Origin: Catajapyx aquilonaris
Taxonomy: Eukaryota
Direction: 5' to 3'
Length of the DNA: 32,717 nucleotides
Assembly: GCA_000934665.2 (NCBI GenBank)
Contig: JYFJ02004351.1
Coordinates: forward strand, 1 to 32,717
Below the pieces are notes generated by a model. The model was not told the DNA's origin and searched no databases. It saw only the letters and a program-made list of their open reading frames with translations. Numbering within the stretch: the first letter of the stretch is position 1; each line of letters opens with the position of its first letter. Of this stretch, positions 10,557-30,314 are shown one piece after another. A program made the position numbers and the translations under genes.

Positions 10557-12228
10557 TAAGGGCAACTAACTTATATCCTTTTCTTGTAACAGGCCTTACT
10601 CTCCCGAGAGTATGCCTATTTTGAATAGCTCAATATTATTAATTTATTGGGCAACATTAGGGTTTGTTTAAGGCACCATTTTTGGCTCTCTCATGAAGTC
10701 TATTAGTAGGCTCTAATTGTGAATATGAAGTCAGAATTTTAATATCGGCATCCATTTTCTTGTAACAAGAGTAGGCCTATACCTTGTTTTCTAGAATTAC
10801 TGAACATTTATTAACATTTATAATTGCTCATTGTCACTTTATATGCATATTTTGTGTAAACATTATTCCATATGAGGATTTTGGTATATCTACAATGGGG
10901 GCATCCTCTTAACTAATGCATACCAAGCCCATACCAAGCCCTATTAGTCATTACTTACTCTGAAATTTATTTCAGTGTATGACTCTAGCCTATACATTAA
11001 GACATAGGTTTTTTAATACCTTAAAATTGCCAATTACTCAAAAACTATAGGTGATATAATCAAATGGTTAACAGATTTGAAATCAGGACAGAGAGCACTA
11101 TAGGAATCGCACATTCATGTATCGATACCTGGCGGTCGAGTTCTCAGGGCCTAGATTCTAGGCGTCTGGGGCTCAAGGGGTTAAAACGTTAAATAGTATT
11201 TCACAGGATGCCTTAGGTTCCAAACTGCTCGAATCTTGATAGAAAGTGAAACATTTTTCAGGATAAAATAAGGTCTGCAGTGAAAAACTGCACCTGGGTG
11301 CACTCCATTATCAGATAAATATACACTATACTAGTACGTACAGTATGGTACGTCGACTTCTCTGTAAAGTTAGTTATAAGACTTACCTTTTGATATAATG
11401 CTGTAAAATTTTGCACTTATCAATAAATAAATTCTCATATACTGTACGTGAATGTGCCTTTAGTTTAGATATAAGGCGGACAAATTTTGGAGGCATCTAG
11501 GCCTACCTCTCTTGACAAACGCTCATGTCACTACAAGCATTCAAAGGCTACAAACCAGTGTTTGACAAGTTCAGCATCATTAATTCTACTGGAATAACTG
11601 ACAATGTGTTGCTTCAAAGTTGGCATTCAATTCCGAAGTCTTTGGCCATATCTTGGTGTGCCCCCCCCCCCCCNNNNNAAAAAAAAAAAAAAAAAAAAAA
11701 AACCTTCCCAAGCATAATTAACCTGAAAGAGAAGTATATGTCTGAAATAAAAGACGGACTTATTTCTCATATTACGAATTGAAAATCTCTTGTTGACATC
11801 AACAACGGAAAAGTCCAAATTACATACAGAATCAAAACGTATATAAGAGTGAGGGCACCTTTGCGCCAATGACGCTGGGCGGAGGAGCACTCATTAGGAG
11901 TATTTCTTATGGATACACAGCTTACAACAAGTGCACCAATTTTCTCCTCCGGTGGTTACCAGGCGGCCGCGGAATGGATAGGGGATTCGTTCATTAATAT
12001 TTACTATTGGGCTTACTTATATGTGCACTTGGTGAACGACACTTGCTTGTCGCCATGCGAGGGTTGGGGCACAATTATTATAGACAAGTGAGGTGGCCAG
12101 GAGAGACTGGGGAGTGGATGATTTGTGGGGATGCCATGCTAAGAAGGCCCCATCTGACATGCCCAGTGTATAAGCACAATTTTACAGGTGATTAGCGGGG
12201 AAATGAATATTATCCCTCCAAATAGAAA

Positions 12229-14526: not shown

Positions 14527-14634
14527 TCACTTGCTGGGGCGCAGAAATGAAGATATTATGTCGATGGGAATGGGGAAGATGATGGTCGAATTCTTCTCAG
14601 CAGAAATAGTATTCAGCGTCTGCAGGTAGCGCAA
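14527..14634 (-). CDS. Stomatin last coding exon F ([35 protein letters not shown])
   Basis: 108 nt including TGA, TACCTTCCAG| acceptor; conserved STIIFP oligomerisation motif. Confidence 0.95.
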
Positions 14635-15913: not shown

Positions 15914-16079
15914 CTGTAGGGCGGCCGGGCTCTCCCCGATGACTTCTGAGGCCTCCTTGAGCGCCCTGGAAGCCTTCATCTCTCCTTCAGCAGCGATGAC
16001 CTTTGCCCTGGCTTCTCTAGCAGCTTCGGCCTCGGCAGCCATGGCCCTCTGAAGCTGCACCGGCAACCTCACATCCTTA
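15914..16079 (-). CDS. Stomatin exon E, coiled coil (KDVRLPVQLQRAMAAEAEAAREARAKVIAAEGEMKASRALKEASEVIGESPAALQ)
   Basis: 166 nt, phase 2/0, GTGCAG| acceptor, CAG|GTACAA donor; band-7 signature region. Confidence 0.97.
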
Positions 16080-16187: not shown

Positions 16188-16349
16188 ATCTCAACTCGCT
16201 CGACCTTGACCCCCCAAGGATCAGTGGCCTCGTCCAGGGCAGTCTGCATCGTGTGAGAGATTGATTCCCGTTCAGACAGGATCTCCGCCAGGTTCTTCGT
16301 GCCAAGAACATTCCTCAGAGTGGTTGCTGCCAAAAGCCGGGTAGAATGG
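16188..16349 (-). CDS. Stomatin exon D (S-HSTRLLAATTLRNVLGTKNLAEILSERESISHTMQTALDEATDPWGVKVERVE-I)
   Basis: 162 nt, phase 2/2, CATCACCTAG| acceptor, AT|GTGAGT donor; TTLRNVLG and WGVKVERVEI motifs. Confidence 0.97.
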
Positions 16350-17292
16350 CTAGGTGATGAAGGAAGGTGGAGTGGGGAAGGGAGAAAAAAAAATGCAAAG
16401 TTATGAATGTGATTGGAAACTGTTACGTAGTCTACTGTACTTGGCTAGCTACACATGTGCTCACCAATATCTCGGTTCTGACTCAAAAGCGCAACAAAGA
16501 TTGAAAGCATTCACGTCACATATATACATACATCAACCAGATAAATGTCTGCAATTATACAAGGCACCCACCTGTAAGGGCTTATTACCCAAGTCAGTTT
16601 AATTAGTTCGCTCCTGAGAATCTATTCAAGCTCAAGTTGGAAGGCTTTCCTGCTATTACTATTTCATTCTCAGTAATCCTGGCCCTGACCCTTTCACAAT
16701 ATGCTCTAAATAACCCCCCACGTCAAACAGCTGCCTTCTAATATAAATGTTGGAAACTGAACATAACTTTACACGTTGATCTCTCTTTCCTTGGTAATGT
16801 GTTTACACGAATGAAACGTAAAACGAATACCCCTTTGATGCTACACCATTAACTAGCACAAAGCTACCTGAAATTCCCTCACCATATTGCGCCAATCGCA
16901 CGAATGAGGGCTGTACGTCGCAGTCTGTTATGCAACGCTCATTTCAAACACTGATCTCATCTAGAACGGAGTGACTACTGTTTACGCAGGCCAAGGATAT
17001 TACACGGTGCACACAAAGAGGTTAATTTGGAATTTCTGAGCCAAATGACAACTCTGCCGTCTCAAGGAAAAAAGGCATATCTGCAAAACCGGTAAGGACG
17101 AAGGTCTCATGCGCCACAAGGAGGGGCATAGGTGACCTATTATTCCTGTGAAATGTAATCAGTACACATTCTGAAAAACATTATTACGCAGTTGCTGCAT
17201 AAGCTTTACATAATTAAACTGATTTAAGGTAAAACGGTGCAGGTTAGAGGGGGGGGGGCAGGGGGGGTATGCGTTCGGGTGGGAGGTTCTAC

Positions 17293-17390
17293 CTGAAGTC
17301 CTCGACGTTGGAGATGCTGATACAGGGATTGCTGACTCGGTAGAAGATGACGGCATCCACGCACACCGTCACAGAGTCCTTGCTGAGGAT
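17293..17390 (-). CDS. Stomatin alternative exon C3 (ILSKDSVTVCVDAVIFYRVSNPCISISNVEDF)
   Basis: 98 nt, TCCCTCCCATCCAG| acceptor, AG|GTAGAA donor, phase 0/2, open frame. Confidence 0.9.
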
Positions 17391-18006
17391 CTGGATGGGA
17401 GGGACTTACTCTATATGTTCTTTACTCTCCCCTCCCCCCACATGATTGTTATCAACAAATGGATTGGCAGGGATGGTTAGTTTGGGTGATTGGAGGGAAT
17501 ACGGACTTCTGCCTTGGCTCTACAAGGTTATCTATATACTCTTCTGCGTCGACTATTGTCCTCAAAGCCGAGAAATAACACTGTCACGCTCTTGGTATTG
17601 GAAACGGTTCCAGTACGCATATCTGCAGCCTGACTGGCGTTCTGAACATGACAATACCAACCAAATCGTTTGACCCTGCACATGTCGCCTCATGCTAACA
17701 AAGCACCAACACAGAATAGGCGTATATAAAGAAGAGAAGATGAAGCAGGCATGAACAGAGAGGCAAGTCAAGTCACCCTCGAAATCAGGGAGTAGTATTG
17801 CCCTCGGGGACCGGGCAGCTGCCCGGGCACCGAGTGCAAGCTGGGCCACGCACAAATACGCAGTCAGCACGCCAAGTACACATGTGTCGTGTTTCTGGTC
17901 CAGGTGTCACGTTGGAAATGATCAAGAGAGCGCCCCTCCCTTATTGACTGGTTGACTGACTGATCAGAGTGCGTGCATCATCGTGCGTGCGCTGGACATG
18001 ACTCAC

Positions 18007-18104
18007 CTGTAGGCCGAGACCCGCACGATGGCTCGCAGAGGGTCCTCCACCCGGAAATAGATGACCGCGTCCACCATCACCGTCACAGAGTCCTTGCTCA
18101 GCAC
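18007..18104 (-). CDS. Stomatin alternative exon C2 (VLSKDSVTVMVDAVIYFRVEDPLRAIVRVSAY)
   Basis: 98 nt, CCTTTTCATCAG| acceptor, AG|GTGAGT donor, phase 0/2, open frame. Confidence 0.9.
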
Positions 18105-19226
18105 CTGATGAAAAGGACGAAGGACCTTGATGGCTACGTGTCACCCACCTACGCGGTCCTACACTGTGTGTTGTCATGTCGGGTACAGTACACGCGGCGC
18201 TTGCCTGACGAGTTCTTGGCCGACCACTACTCCCTGACCACCGTGATTTGTCGACAGTTATGTTATGACACTTGCTAAGAGGTGTTAATTGCTACTTATA
18301 CTAATATATCTGTGGCTCAGTGCATGAAGCAGATAGCCCACACGAAAGTAGCACAAAATCAAGGGGATCAGATAATTAAAAATTGCAAAGGATCATTCGT
18401 GAATTAAGTGACTCCGTCTATATGGGTTTTTTATGTAACAGTCTCTGACACCACTGAAATGTAGGGAGGGGCTAGTAATATGGCAAATGCTCATCACATT
18501 AGGTAAAAATGCTTAGAAAGGTTTATAAATCTCTCCATGCGATAATAAAACGAGTTTGAAGCACGAAGAGGAAACTATGCGAATAATGCTAATCATAAAA
18601 CATCAAGCGAATCACGCATTGTTTTGTAATCAGCAATGTAATGAAGTCTTATGTCTACTTACATGTCAAGCCCCCGACCACCAAGTACTCGTCCACTCTG
18701 ATAAGTTCAAAAAACGACAAGTTTGAGTTTAAATTATCACGTAATAAGCTTGTTATCTCATTACATAGGCTTTATCCCAAATCGTGTGGATTCCTAATGC
18801 TTCATAACCTGTCTAGGATGTGCGTACAGCACTGTACAAGATTGATTGGTGATTAAGGGTTGTTCCTACAAATCTCTTAATTACATGCTATACAGAACGA
18901 CAAAACGCATAGTTTTGTGAGATTGTACTAACTGTGCATCACATTGCATACAGTTGATGAATTATTTTAAGGCAGCGCGCATGCGCGGAGGATAATAACT
19001 GAAGAGTACCTGCAGCACCTATTCGGATGCTCATAGCATTTGCATTATGTTTACCAGCGGCACCATTTTGAACATTTTCATAGCACATCAAAGACCTTCT
19101 TATGCACCGGTAAGAGTCCAGCATGACAATAATCATGTGTTGCTACTGTAATTGACAAGCTATGCATTTTCGGAATATAGCACATATCATGTGGACGAGA
19201 AATATGGGGTTCGGGGTTATAAAATA

Positions 19227-19752
19227 CAGGGTGTCCGCAATGAACCTCCCTAATTTCAAAGAGCAGTAAAAAATAGAAATGCGGAGGTATATTATAAGGT
19301 TTTGGTTGTTTAAACGGTCTGGAGACTCAACAAGTTTCATCCTGAATTTTTGGAACAGCCTATGTGATGCGGTGGCGCTCATCCTGTGGGGGATGCTGTC
19401 GGAAGATGCAAACATAGCATATACAGAGCTGAAGTCGATCGCAAAAGTTCTGGACATGCTGGACATTTCACCTTTCCACAACTCCAAGACAGAATCTATG
19501 CAACTAAAGCGGACAGTCCAAATAATGACGTGTCTTCCATCACCCCTGACATGCTGGAGAGAACCTCAGGGGAGAGAGATTATCGGCTTATAATTGTGCT
19601 TGCTACTAAAGGAGCACACGAGGAAGGCTACTTAATTTTTTACATAAACTTGACGAGTCTCCCTTCTCATTTGTACAATTTCCACACCATGGTCCAGTAA
19701 CTTGTGTAATAGTGACCAGTTAAAACTAGGGAGGTTTATTGTGGACACCCTG
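19227..19752. mobile_element. Tc1/mariner-type deletion derivative
   Basis: TA flanks, TIR CAGGGTGTCC(G/A)CAAT(G/A)AACCTCCCTA; the interior has a degenerate LWG-L stretch reminiscent of a transposase C-terminus. Confidence 0.8.
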
Positions 19753-19891
19753 TATACAGTATATAGCATATTGAAATTCAGTCTGCTCATGTACAGGACA
19801 TTAAATAATATGAGAGAGTATAAAATCAACATTTTTCAATCAAGGTTCCACCGAATGGCTTCAGGTAACTCGCCAGATTTTGCGACATATA

Positions 19892-20101
19892 CAGGGTGTT
19901 TCAACTTTTTTTGTCCCAACAGTTATCGGAAATATTGCACTAAGCTGCTACTTTGTAAGCAGTGTATGCCACTTCAACCTAAGATTCGCAGGGCATATTC
20001 CCCATTCCTCCGACAAACCGGTTGCAAGTCACTGCTTACAAAGTAGCAGCTTAGTGCAATATTTCCGATAACTGTTGGGACAAAAAGGTTGAAACACCCT
20101 G
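19892..20101. mobile_element. 210-bp Tc1/mariner-type MITE
   Basis: TA flanks, about 72-bp near-perfect TIRs starting CAGGGTGTTTCAAC. Confidence 0.9.
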
Positions 20102-20298
20102 TATACACGAGGAAATGGGGTAATCCTAATAAGTACATAAGACGCAGGGGCATAAAATACCCATAAGTCACATTAGGCAAGGAAATAATGTTTGTGTCGA
20201 AATGTTAACTGTCGACAGTCAAACGCGTGTCAAGCTTGCCCTCCATCATATGGTTATTATCGTATCACAACAAATAAGCCAATCCAACACATGTTTAA

Positions 20299-21355
20299 CC
20301 CCTTCGCTACCAGATAGGCCCGAACCACGTAGATTTTGGATTACGCGTACTCCGAAGATACGGAATAGATATTTTACAAATAATAACAGCTCTACTTATC
20401 ACGTTCAAGGAAAACACTATGAATGTGTCTGGTTCCTAAATTAAAATTTTTAAAGGGTATAAAAACTGGGAATCTGAGTACCGGTACTGACAATGTGCCG
20501 ACCAACTGTTAGGATGATTTAAATATGAAATGCGTGATGATATGCGGAATATCAACCTTGAGAACCGTGCCAGACGAATTTTCTGAACTCGTCGTACTTT
20601 GCGAGAAATAAATTAATACTTATTTGCGACTTTCTGGTACTTCGGAAAATAGCTAATAAATGGGAGTTTTCCGAAGTACCAGAAAGTCGCAAATACGTAT
20701 TAATTTATTTCTCGCAAAGTACGACGAGTTCAGAAAATTCGTCTGGTATGGTACTCAAGGTTGTTATTCCGCATATAATAATAATAATTTGATACCCCAT
20801 TATCAGCCTACGGGCCTCCCTAGGGGGGGGATTTCTCCCATTTTTTTTTGTCTGGAACTCTTCCATTTTTTACTATTTTCTCATCATCTGAAATGAAGCA
20901 GGGAAAGGGAAGGAAGGAAGCGGCTGTGGCCTATATTACGGTAACGACCCCGGAATTATCCTGCAAGGACCATGGGAAACCACAGAAAACCATGGTCAGG
21001 GTCGCCGGCCTCCGGGATTCGAACCCAGGACCTCCCGATTAGCAGTCGGATACCCTATCCACTCCACCACTACTGCTTCGGTTATTCCGCATATTATCAC
21101 GCATTTCATATTTCAATCAGCCTAACAGTACTGTTGGTTGGCAGTACTCGGATTTCCAGTTTTATAGCCTTTTTTGGAAATTAATTTAGGGACTTCTAGA
21201 GAAGTAAAATAGTTCCAGACACATTCATAGTGTTTTCCCTGAATGTGGTAAGTATAAGTTAGCTGTTATTATTTGTAAAATATCTTGTCCGTATCTTCGG
21301 AGTACGCTTAAGCCAAATACTACGTTGTTCGGGCCTATCTGGTATAGCGAAGCGG
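20299..21355. mobile_element. TTAA-flanked (piggyBac-like) foldback element, interrupted by a SINE
   Basis: TTAA at 20295-20298 and 21356-21359; long inverted arms; central near-perfect hairpin at about 20570-20746. Confidence 0.85.
20777..21080 (-). mobile_element. Full-length tRNA-derived SINE (304 bp)
   Basis: 14-bp TSD GTTATTCCGCATAT (20763-20776, 21081-21094); A box TGGTGGAGTGG, B box GGTTCGAATCC, (TTA)n tail. Confidence 0.9.
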
Positions 21356-21673
21356 TTAAGATACACATAACTATGAAAAATACACACTGAATACAGTTCA
21401 GATATAATGTAGGAAAGAGACAGAAATGAGCAAGATGAAGACACCGTACAGAAAAGAAGGCAGCGATTAAGCCTTCGTCTTTATATGCAGCAATAACTAC
21501 ACCTGTGCAGATCTACCCTAGATGTGAAATAGTATCATCATAATCTTTGACGTGGAGCATCGAAAGCAAGCCATTCATTCTTCATGCCCAGCAGACAAGG
21601 TACAGTACAAGGCGACTCTACGTACTACTTTAGTGAGATACACAGATGTCAAGTAAGAAGCCAGTAGCCTATA

Positions 21674-22225
21674 CAGGGTGTTTATTACTAGTAGGTCAAG
21701 CCGCAAGTGTCATATTCCTTGGCCCAAGCCAAGTTTAAAATGCAGGAAGGAGAAAATAATGTCGAGAGACCATATATCCTGTAACGAGGTAGACGACCCG
21801 AAGCATTGACCTACTCCTAGACACATGCTGCAACACACACGACGCGACGCCTCTTTGTAAGGAGGTCCCCTGACATGTGGACCCCGCGCCTTACAGAGGT
21901 TGCCTAGAGAGCAGGAGATAAGCGTGATAATCATGACCGATAGGATTTTGCGAGATCACCTCTTTCGCAGAAGCGATTATCATGCCCATATCCTGCTCCC
22001 TAGGCAACCCCTGTAAGGCGCGCGAGTCCATCTGCCAGGAGATCTCCTTACAAAGAGGCGTAGTGTGTGTTGCCGCCTGCGTCTAGGGGTAGGCCAATGT
22101 TTCGGGTCGTCTACCTTGTTACAGGGTGGTCCCTCGACTTTATTTTCTCCTCCCTACACTTTAGACTTGGTTTGGGCCAAGGAATACACCACTTGCGGAT
22201 TGACCTACTAGTAAGCAACACCCTG
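21674..22225. mobile_element. 552-bp Tc1/mariner-type foldback MITE
   Basis: TA flanks, CAGGGTGTT termini, imperfect inverted arms over nearly the whole length. Confidence 0.88.
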
Positions 22226-22250
22226 TATATGTCACTACTGAAGTGTCTAC

Positions 22251-22348
22251 CTGTAGTCCTGTACGTTGTTGGTGGCCATGATGGGCTTGCTGACACGGTA
22301 GTAAACCACAGCATCCACGCTCGCTGTTACAGAGTCGTGGGTCAGCAT
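22251..22348 (-). CDS. Stomatin alternative exon C1 (MLTHDSVTASVDAVVYYRVSKPIMATNNVQDY)
   Basis: 98 nt, CTTTGCAG| acceptor, AG|GTAGAC donor, phase 0/2, open frame, SPFH motif DSVT.VDAV.Y.RV. Confidence 0.9.
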
Positions 22349-27055: not shown

Positions 27056-27285
27056 ATATAATATAATATATAATATGCATAATATATAATATAATAAATA
27101 ATATATTATATATAATATATAATATGCATAATATATAATATAATAAATAATATATTATATATAATATATAATATGCATAATATATAATATAATAAATAAT
27201 ATATTATATATAATATATAATATGCATAATATATAATATAATAAATAATATATTATATAATATATAATATGCATAAATATAATAA
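27056..27285. repeat. AT-rich minisatellite, 49-bp unit, about 4.7 copies
   Basis: TGCAT anchor recurs at 27076, 27125, 27174, 27223 and 27270. Confidence 0.95.
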
Positions 27286-28695: not shown

Positions 28696-29177
28696 AGAAG
28701 CAATGTCAGGGTGGGAAAATGGCCAGGTCTCATTTTACTTTTAGCAACAGCCTTCTTTTCTCAGGCATCATCAAATTCTCCTGTAATTTACACTGACGGC
28801 TTCCTTGGTGTAATGCCATTTGTGACAGCACATTAGGAACAATTCACCATTGCAACATGCAATGGCCTCCGATGTCATGAAGTCCATAAATTATTATCAG
28901 ACCTAACGCGTTAAAAAGGCACTGGACACCACGCTTCCCTGAGCCTGTAATATATATACCGCTGAAGCGTGTAGTTTGACCAACTATGCAGCCCGAGTGT
29001 GTAACCATCCCGGATTCTGCAGGTTGGCCCGTGGTTTGGCCTTATCTGTAGTGAACATCCTTGTGAAAAGAGCGCAACGTCGCCCTATATGAGCCGTCCA
29101 ATGATTGCAGCATAGATGGGTTAGGAGGTGGGTCGGTTGAGGGGAAAGGTGAGTGGGTAAGCAATGACTTGACTGAC

Positions 29178-29333
29178 CTCTTGTGGTGGCACATCAAAGG
29201 AGACGGTACGCAGGTCGACCTTACGATAGGAGTCGATACAGGGCAGCACGAAGAAGATACCAGGTCCTCTGGCGCCTCCCTTTCGCAGTCTTCCAAGTCG
29301 AAATATCACGGCTCGCTCGTACTCCTGCACAAC
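29178..29333 (-). CDS. Stomatin exon B ([52 protein letters not shown])
   Basis: 156 nt, phase 0/0, GGCAG| acceptor, GAG|GTCAGT donor; classic stomatin motifs. Confidence 0.97.
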
Positions 29334-30210: not shown

Positions 30211-30314
30211 CTTGAAGCACATGAACACGGAGACGGGCAGCGTGATTATAAGCAGAAGAATGGAGCCCACTGTTGCAATCACCTCCACCAGGGTGTTCTC
30301 GTGCGGCTCTTCTG
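30211..30314 (-). CDS. Stomatin exon A: hydrophobic membrane hairpin (EEPHENTLVEVIATVGSILLLIITLPVSVFMCFK)
   Basis: Acceptor TTGTTTTCAG (tandem CAGCAG), donor AAG|GTAAGT. Hydrophobic stretch with the stomatin proline and the C-x-K preceding VVQEYER. Confidence 0.92.

Follow-up and report, generated by a model that had tools for sequence, protein, structure and literature searches.

A stomatin gene of Catajapyx aquilonaris with three probable mutually exclusive exons in its SPFH domain

Introduction

Proteins of the stomatin family, among them MEC-2, STOML3 and podocin, determine how sensitive mechanosensitive and acid-sensing channels are, and a general question touched by the locus described here is how one scaffold serves different channels. 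The locus is a stomatin gene on the minus strand of contig JYFJ02004351.1 (assembly GCA_000934665.2, positions 1 to 32,717) from Catajapyx aquilonaris; we refer to this whole stretch of 32,717 nucleotides as the window. Between two constitutive exons of the gene, designated B and D, lie three homologous exons of 98 nt, named C3, C2 and C1 in their order along the gene. We put at roughly three in four the probability that this is a single gene with a mutually exclusive three-exon slot, in which B would be joined to C3, C2 or C1 and then to D.

Results

Layout of the gene

The exon map was built by tblastn of full-length relatives, retrieved with the exon B reading frame as query, and by inspection of splice sites; homology searches with a 45-residue frame around C2, or with the frame around exon A, gave no matches. 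All parts of the gene lie on the minus strand, and its internal exon boundaries are AG/GT throughout. Exon A (30211-30314), placed by tblastn of relatives, AG/GT boundaries and frame, encodes the membrane hairpin segment EEPHENTLVEVIATVGSILLLIITLPVSVFMCFK. It begins mid-codon, and at least one further 5' exon carrying the start codon is therefore expected; no such exon was found 5' of exon A in the window. The constitutive exon B (29178-29333, 156 nt) ends in a whole codon, GAG, the last of ...FDVPPQE. It is followed by the three alternative exons, which we assign below to sequence types T3, T2 and T1 respectively: C3 (22251-22348; MLTHDSVTASVDAVVYYRVSKPIMATNNVQDY plus the nucleotides AG), the 5'-most of the set, C2 (18007-18104; VLSKDSVTVMVDAVIYFRVEDPLRAIVRVSAY plus AG) and C1 (17293-17390; ILSKDSVTVCVDAVIFYRVSNPCISISNVEDF plus AG). 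The constitutive exon D (16188-16349, 162 nt) reads S-HSTRLLAATTLRNVLG..., its first base completing the split codon AG|C, a serine. Exons B and D were identified by Pfam matches, boundaries and their single-copy status. The constitutive exon E (15914-16079; KDVRLPVQLQRAMAAEAEAAREARAKVIAAEGE...), which encodes coiled-coil sequence, and the coding part of exon F (14527-14634), which ends in the stop TGA, were located by tblastn of relatives and splice-site inspection.

The Pfam family Band_7 (PF01145; cut-off 23.6 bits) matches the exon B frame at 36.9 bits over profile positions 2-52 and the exon D frame at 32.7 bits over positions 93-141. Between these two, the C3 frame matches positions 50-81 at 15.8 bits, a score below the cut-off, as expected of a 32-residue piece. 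Spliced as A-B-C-D-E-F, the gene has the layout of a stomatin, with a hydrophobic hairpin containing a proline, an SPFH domain, a coiled coil and a C-terminal ...STIIFP.P... strand. The predicted product is an arthropod stomatin, of the kind listed at NCBI as 'band 7 protein AGAP004871-like' or 'mechanosensory protein 2'.

Little else was recognized nearby. No other gene was found in the window among 27 frames taken from the 69 long frames, none of which had a Pfam match, and neither tRNA genes nor Rfam families were detected there. Six N bases, at 914 and 11674-11678, mark assembly gaps or masked letters and fall outside the gene parts described above.

Three equivalent exons and a frame rule

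C3, C2 and C1 are each exactly 98 nt long, preceded by AG and followed by GT, and each holds 32 open codons plus the two nucleotides AG. They share a phase, 0 on entry and 2 nt on exit, and no other exon lies between them. Their peptides are 50-56% identical (16-18 of 32 residues) and their DNA is identical at 58-70 of 98 positions. Any pair agrees at 12-15 of the first 19 residues and at 3-5 of the last 13. The ratio of nonsynonymous to synonymous substitution rates (dN/dS) among the copies is 0.44-0.52, with dS at 0.6-1.1. A tblastn search with the three peptides found only these three loci, and hence no fourth or degenerate C copy in the window; when the search was widened to 58 queries (the three window exons and 55 segments from relatives, described below), the same three loci were recovered and everything else had E > 0.04.

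Scripted splicing established what each combination of these exons would encode. Any single C copy placed in A-B-Cx-D-E-F gives one open frame of 263 residues that ends at the exon F TGA. With 0, 2 or 3 copies, translation would meet its first stop at codon 112-126, long before the last junction. Because 98 leaves a remainder of 2 on division by 3, skipping all C exons or using more than one shifts the frame, and since the resulting stop lies several junctions before the last exon, the faulty messages would be likely targets of nonsense-mediated decay. The initial annotation of this DNA had described three homologous 98-nt exons at these positions, with AG/GT sites, open frames and clearly diverged peptides, and had argued that 0, 2 or 3 copies shift the frame; our sequence check and the computed frames bear out these points.

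It had further argued against a tandem gene array on the grounds that no flanking exon is duplicated, and this too held: a search of the 32.7-kb window that admitted matches with E up to 5 turned up each of A, B, D, E and F only once. The observation bears on an alternative in which C3, C2 and C1 belong to separate nested or tandem paralogous stomatin genes. Such an arrangement is conceivable in arthropods, whose stomatins are multi-copy (Cherax quadricarinatus has two such genes) and include some NCBI models that are fused tandem proteins, but here we regard it as very improbable, given that the flanking exons are single-copy, that a lone 98-nt exon cannot make a stomatin and that, as described next, the isoforms of relatives have identical flanks.

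The same slot is swapped in orthologous arthropod genes

Relatives were taken from NCBI proteins (the best 120 of 4622 matches, with at most 15 listed members per cluster), and the slot segment was defined as the stretch between ...FDVPPQE and SHSTRLLA; 55 distinct segments were drawn in this way from 191 of 239 proteins. In all 19 species/gene groups (19/19), NCBI isoforms, which are automatic models, differ in exactly this 32-residue slot. The groups span decapods, branchiopods, copepods, locusts, a cockroach, termites and a stick insect. For 18 of the groups, the isoforms sampled all match one another exactly over the 55 residues before and the 110 residues after the slot, and carry between them 2 to 6 different segments. 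In the nineteenth, from Daphnia pulex, six of the seven isoforms have identical flanks; the seventh, which has differences elsewhere as well, probably comes from another copy of the gene. Every relative's isoform that we examined contains exactly one segment.

The swap is plain in pairwise alignments from shrimp, crab, stick insect, crayfish and brine shrimp. Pairs of isoforms that display it include X6 versus X1 of Penaeus vannamei, X1 versus X2 of Homarus americanus, X2 versus X1 of Bacillus rossius, X2 versus X1 of Zootermopsis nevadensis, X2 versus X1 of Daphnia pulex and X3 versus X4 of Lepeophtheirus salmonis.

Two further features of these isoform sets stand apart from the slot swap itself. 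The second stomatin gene of Cherax quadricarinatus (isoforms X1-X6, X8 and X9) shows six different 32-residue segments between identical flanks, a cluster much larger than that of the window. In Portunus trituberculatus, isoforms X4 and X7 differ over their last ~30 residues as well, which suggests an alternative last exon in crabs; no second exon F of this kind was found in the window.

The three exons correspond to three conserved types

The 55 segments fall largely into three groups by the motif in their tail. T3 segments, with the motif P-I/T/V-M-A-x-x-N-V/I-x-D-Y/F (PIMATNNVEDY type), occur in locusts, cockroach, termites, stick insect, Daphnia, Artemia, decapods and copepods. T2 segments (E/D-P-L-x-A-...-V-x-x-Y, or EPL type) occur in insects, including beetles, moths and a louse, and T1 segments (N-P-x-x-A-V-S/C-N-V/I-E/S-D/N-F, or NP..AVSNVENF type) in Daphnia and decapods. 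By lineage, the sample contains T2 and T3 in insects, T1 and T3 in Daphnia and decapods, and T3 together with a divergent type in copepods.

Each window exon matches a different one of these types. C3 is the best-matching window exon for all 13 distinct T3 segments (21-25 of 32 residues identical) and C1 for all 8 distinct T1 segments (19-23 of 32), while C2 is best or tied for all 14 distinct T2 segments (19-24 of 32, with two ties), its top match being a termite segment at 24 of 32. Every window exon is thus closer to its own conserved type than to its neighbours in the window. The best own-type match of each, at 72-78% identity, comes from a distant lineage, and the likeness includes type-specific residues of the variable tail.

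A quick maximum-likelihood tree of 32 columns, built from 52 of the 55 segments together with C3, C2 and C1, places C3 inside a T3 clade, with a value of 97 in the Shimodaira-Hasegawa-like approximate likelihood-ratio test (SH-aLRT), and groups C2 with all T2 rows (SH-aLRT 93, below the star threshold). An approximately unbiased (AU) test on 54 of the 55 segments counts against a clade made up of the three window exons (p = 0.04). Judged by these comparisons, C3, C2 and C1 are old paralogues, and because they match types kept in other arthropod lineages, each is under purifying selection of its own.

The rest of the protein gives a sense of how far the window lineage stands from these relatives. 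From exon B on, the window protein shows 88-89% identity to each of polyneopteran insects, branchiopods and decapods, and these groups are 88-91% identical to one another, about the same as to the window protein; over the same part, 11 orthologues that carry T3 are 85-89% identical to it, and four further relatives are 80-84% identical. Given this similar distance to all three groups, the window lineage is not close to any of them. The pattern fits, and does not prove, the view that the three types predate the split of insects, branchiopods and decapods.

Splice signals, introns and RNA pairing

C3 has the acceptor ...gggctttgcag and the donor gtagac, C2 the acceptor ...cgtccttttcatcag and the donor gtgagt, and C1 the acceptor ...gtccctcccatccag and the donor gtagaa. 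An inverted-repeat search and RNA folding revealed a foldback repeat of ~575 nt (21650-22250, minus strand) in the C3-C2 intron, starting 14 nt past the C3 donor. Its RNA would make a single hairpin, long and near-perfect (-432.8 kcal/mol, z -28, with 0 of 20 shuffles as low), and in the minimum-energy fold the outermost helix takes in the C3 5' splice site. The foldback is probably a mobile element.

Nested foldback repeats abound in the introns. Foldbacks resembling miniature inverted-repeat transposable elements lie at 21650-22250, 19890-20105 and ~19228-19760 and share the terminal motif TATACAGGGTG...CACCCTGTATA; a perfect 57-nt inverted repeat is found at 19908-20086. Nested inverted repeats occupy 20308-21344, where 20308-20391 pairs with 21261-21344 and 20505-20551 with 21083-21129, around an inner palindrome at 20537-20779 with 113-nt arms that are 95% complementary. 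The nesting suggests that, in this part of the C3-C2 intron, a foldback element has been inserted into a second one. The B-C3 intron contains an AT-rich, self-complementary, low-complexity tract at 27061-27270 (ATAATATATAAT...).

How one exon would be chosen is a separate matter from what the cluster is, and here a rival account concerns mechanism and not the identity of the cluster: the choice may be set by competing RNA pairings between a docking site and selectors, as in Dscam1 and 14-3-3 xi, with the frame rule as a backstop. This mechanism is known for several arthropod clusters (PMC6071210). Short complementary stretches are present in the window, for example one of 12 bp (2 of them G-U) that would join the 5' end of the B-C3 intron (29163-29174) to part of the C2-C1 intron (17766-17777), and the pyrimidine tract ahead of exon D could pair with purine runs close to C3 and to C1. 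However, the matches found by a stem search and by blastn are 11-15 bp long, are at chance level (blastn E 0.05-0.7) and have no common hub; the only long blastn match is an overlap of two search windows from the same intron. A candidate stem around C1 fares no better. As RNA, C1 is bracketed by a C-rich run shortly past its donor and a G-rich run 35-47 nt ahead of its acceptor (17249-17270 and 17425-17437), and we rejected a pairing of the two around the exon, which is no more stable than shuffles (z -0.48). On this balance, a choice governed by competing RNA pairings seems rather unlikely.

The swapped piece in the stomatin protein

HMMER alignment of a close relative to human and mouse stomatin chains places the slot at mouse stomatin residues 108-139 plus the split codon 140. 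The relative matches the human chains at E = 7e-115 and is ~70-75% alike over 244 aligned residues. The slot spans strand beta2 and helix alpha1. Brand et al. (2012; PMC3433786) give the residues of the stomatin hydrophobic pocket as Phe101, Tyr124, Val126, Ile136, Leu178 and Thr182; the pocket is needed for inhibition of ASIC channels, closes by movements of alpha1, alpha2 and beta2 and, once closed, no longer supports ASIC3 inhibition. Three of these six residues (Tyr124, Val126 and Ile136) fall inside the slot.

All three window exons encode valine at both 126 and 136, and positions 123/124 read YY in C3, YF in C2 and FY in C1. The first 19 residues of the slot, which form the strand with Tyr124 and Val126, are largely conserved across types, while the last 13, the loop and helix alpha1 around Ile136, depend on type; the type-specific variation is found mostly at 127-135 and 137-139, in the loop and the short helix. 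For a relative, an AlphaFold model likewise puts a strand followed by a short helix in the slot, at a low confidence (mean predicted local distance difference test score, pLDDT, 59) that makes it usable for secondary structure only. In the cryo-electron microscopy papers on the 16-subunit stomatin cage that we searched, we found neither a mention of residues 124-138 nor the SPFH1/SPFH2 boundaries.

Discussion

The three 98-nt exons, the frame rule and the slot swap in relatives are together best explained, in our view, by one gene with a mutually exclusive three-exon slot. Several observations weigh against this reading. It is from the genome that we infer the use of each C exon in C. aquilonaris, the isoforms of relatives are automatic models, the sampling of those isoforms is partial within the bounds given above, and the tail motifs that separate the types were defined after inspection of the data. 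The tree is weak, having 32 columns only, and C1 has no firm place in it, falling near Daphnia T1 rows and generic stomatin forms; the AU test keeps both C1 with C2 (p = 0.21) and C1 with C3 (p = 0.22) as sisters (54 of the 55 segments). No sampled species has all three types, so that one exon could be unused in the window gene. The C3 acceptor tract is purine-rich and poor in pyrimidines, and the long hairpin follows directly after the C3 donor. Finally, a stem search near the exons and blastn of their 400-nt flanks gave no docking or selector pairing that explains exon choice.

A related alternative accepts that the cluster is mutually exclusive and holds that only two of its exons, or one, are still used, the other copy being a relic. 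The sampled relatives, each of which shows just two of the three types in this gene, would agree with this, as would the pairing of a weak acceptor tract in C3 with a hairpin that begins 14 nt past its donor, or the assignment of C1 to its type, which is the weakest of the three; moreover, 32 codons would stay open by chance with a probability of ~0.2, or (61/64)^32. Against a relic, the AG/GT sites, exact length and frame are intact in all three exons, and an identity of 72-78% to the best own-type segment in distant lineages is unexpected for an equally old neutral copy. Moreover, the exon whose splice signals are weakest, C3, is of type T3, which is conserved more widely than the other types. 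We consider it unlikely that one or two of the exons have fallen out of use.

If the slot is indeed mutually exclusive and all three exons are used, each message would take a single 98-nt exon, a one-only use that the frame rule backs, and the outcome would be three proteins that are alike except at the residues matching mouse stomatin 108-139. The switch would then likely serve to adjust the surface of helix alpha1 and the mobile hydrophobic pocket in the SPFH domain. Such adjustment could in turn change, in different cells, how partners or channels are modulated or how subunits mix in the 16-subunit cage.

A broader scenario, which we offer as possible though doubtful, is that the three types form an ancient module at least as old as the insect/crustacean split, trimmed to two in most lineages and kept at three in that of the window. 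Stomatin cages with different alpha1 and pocket surfaces might then act as distinct regulators of DEG/ENaC/ASIC-type or Piezo-type channels, or as mixed 16-subunit assemblies, in different sensory and non-sensory cells.

The central proposal of the initial annotation, that one gene here makes three SPFH variants, keeps its core: the slot is swapped in 19 of 19 groups of relatives and the window exons match different types, which together favour such a set of variants. The sensory-cell-type specificity that it had also suggested is a conjecture. The slot swap already stands in the public automatic annotation of many arthropods. As a splice switch it appears, with good support from comparison, to be real and old, and not a new kind of system. 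What is particular to the window gene is the set of three types in one gene and its location on the stomatin pocket. Here and in many arthropods, evolution kept alternative versions of the beta2-alpha1 piece that lines this pocket. They amount to a natural variant set for asking what the beta2-alpha1 surface does. The cluster is a modest but usable lead and not a new principle.

Comparison with known systems

Our literature search met the cluster in automatic annotation alone: the full-text search, which did not cover the 2013 Drosophila catalogue (Hatje and Kollmar), returned no published account of it, and the papers it found on both stomatin and mutually exclusive exons speak of such exons in other genes only. 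The precedent invoked by the initial annotation was C. elegans mec-2, described as a gene with a pair of mutually exclusive SPFH exons used neuron-specifically, a scheme that the window was held to extend to a triple cassette. The precedent does not stand in that form. In the available parts of the papers, the neuron-specific splicing of mec-2 is a 3' splice-site choice that yields a long or a short C-terminus under MEC-8, and it also involves a cassette exon (Liang, Calovich-Benne and Norris, 2022, PMC8934639; PMC12084633); those parts describe no mutually exclusive SPFH exons. Since the worm choice is not one between paired SPFH exons, the window cluster is no extension of it. The two genes remain alike in belonging to the stomatin family, and the worm isoforms differ by neuron type and function (PMC8934639; PMC12084633).

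In mammalian stomatin (mouse structures 4FVF, 4FVG and 4FVJ; human 16-subunit cryo-electron microscopy cages 9OH9 and 9WKZ, among others), the slot is likewise beta2 plus alpha1. The mammalian protein differs in having aspartate at residue 140, where the window gene encodes serine, and the mammalian stomatin literature that we consulted describes no alternative exons for the vertebrate gene.

Clusters of mutually exclusive, tandem-duplicated exons were defined by Pillmann et al. (2011; PMC3228551) and, reportedly, by Hatje and Kollmar. The classical arthropod examples (Dscam1, muscle myosin heavy chain and 14-3-3 xi) resemble the window in having adjacent homologous exons of equal length, with the same phase and sites, that serve one intron slot of one gene. 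Unlike them, the window has no docking or selector pairing that we could find, and the exon length of 2 mod 3 lets the reading frame enforce one-only use. The text supplements of Pillmann et al., in the portion available, do not name a stomatin gene.

The closest counterparts of the window gene are the pancrustacean isoform sets at NCBI. They use the same slot, after ...FDVPPQE and before SHSTRLLA, with the same length of 32 residues and the same types. They differ from it in the number of types that a single species holds: two in each species sampled, whereas the window gene has T1, T2 and T3 together.

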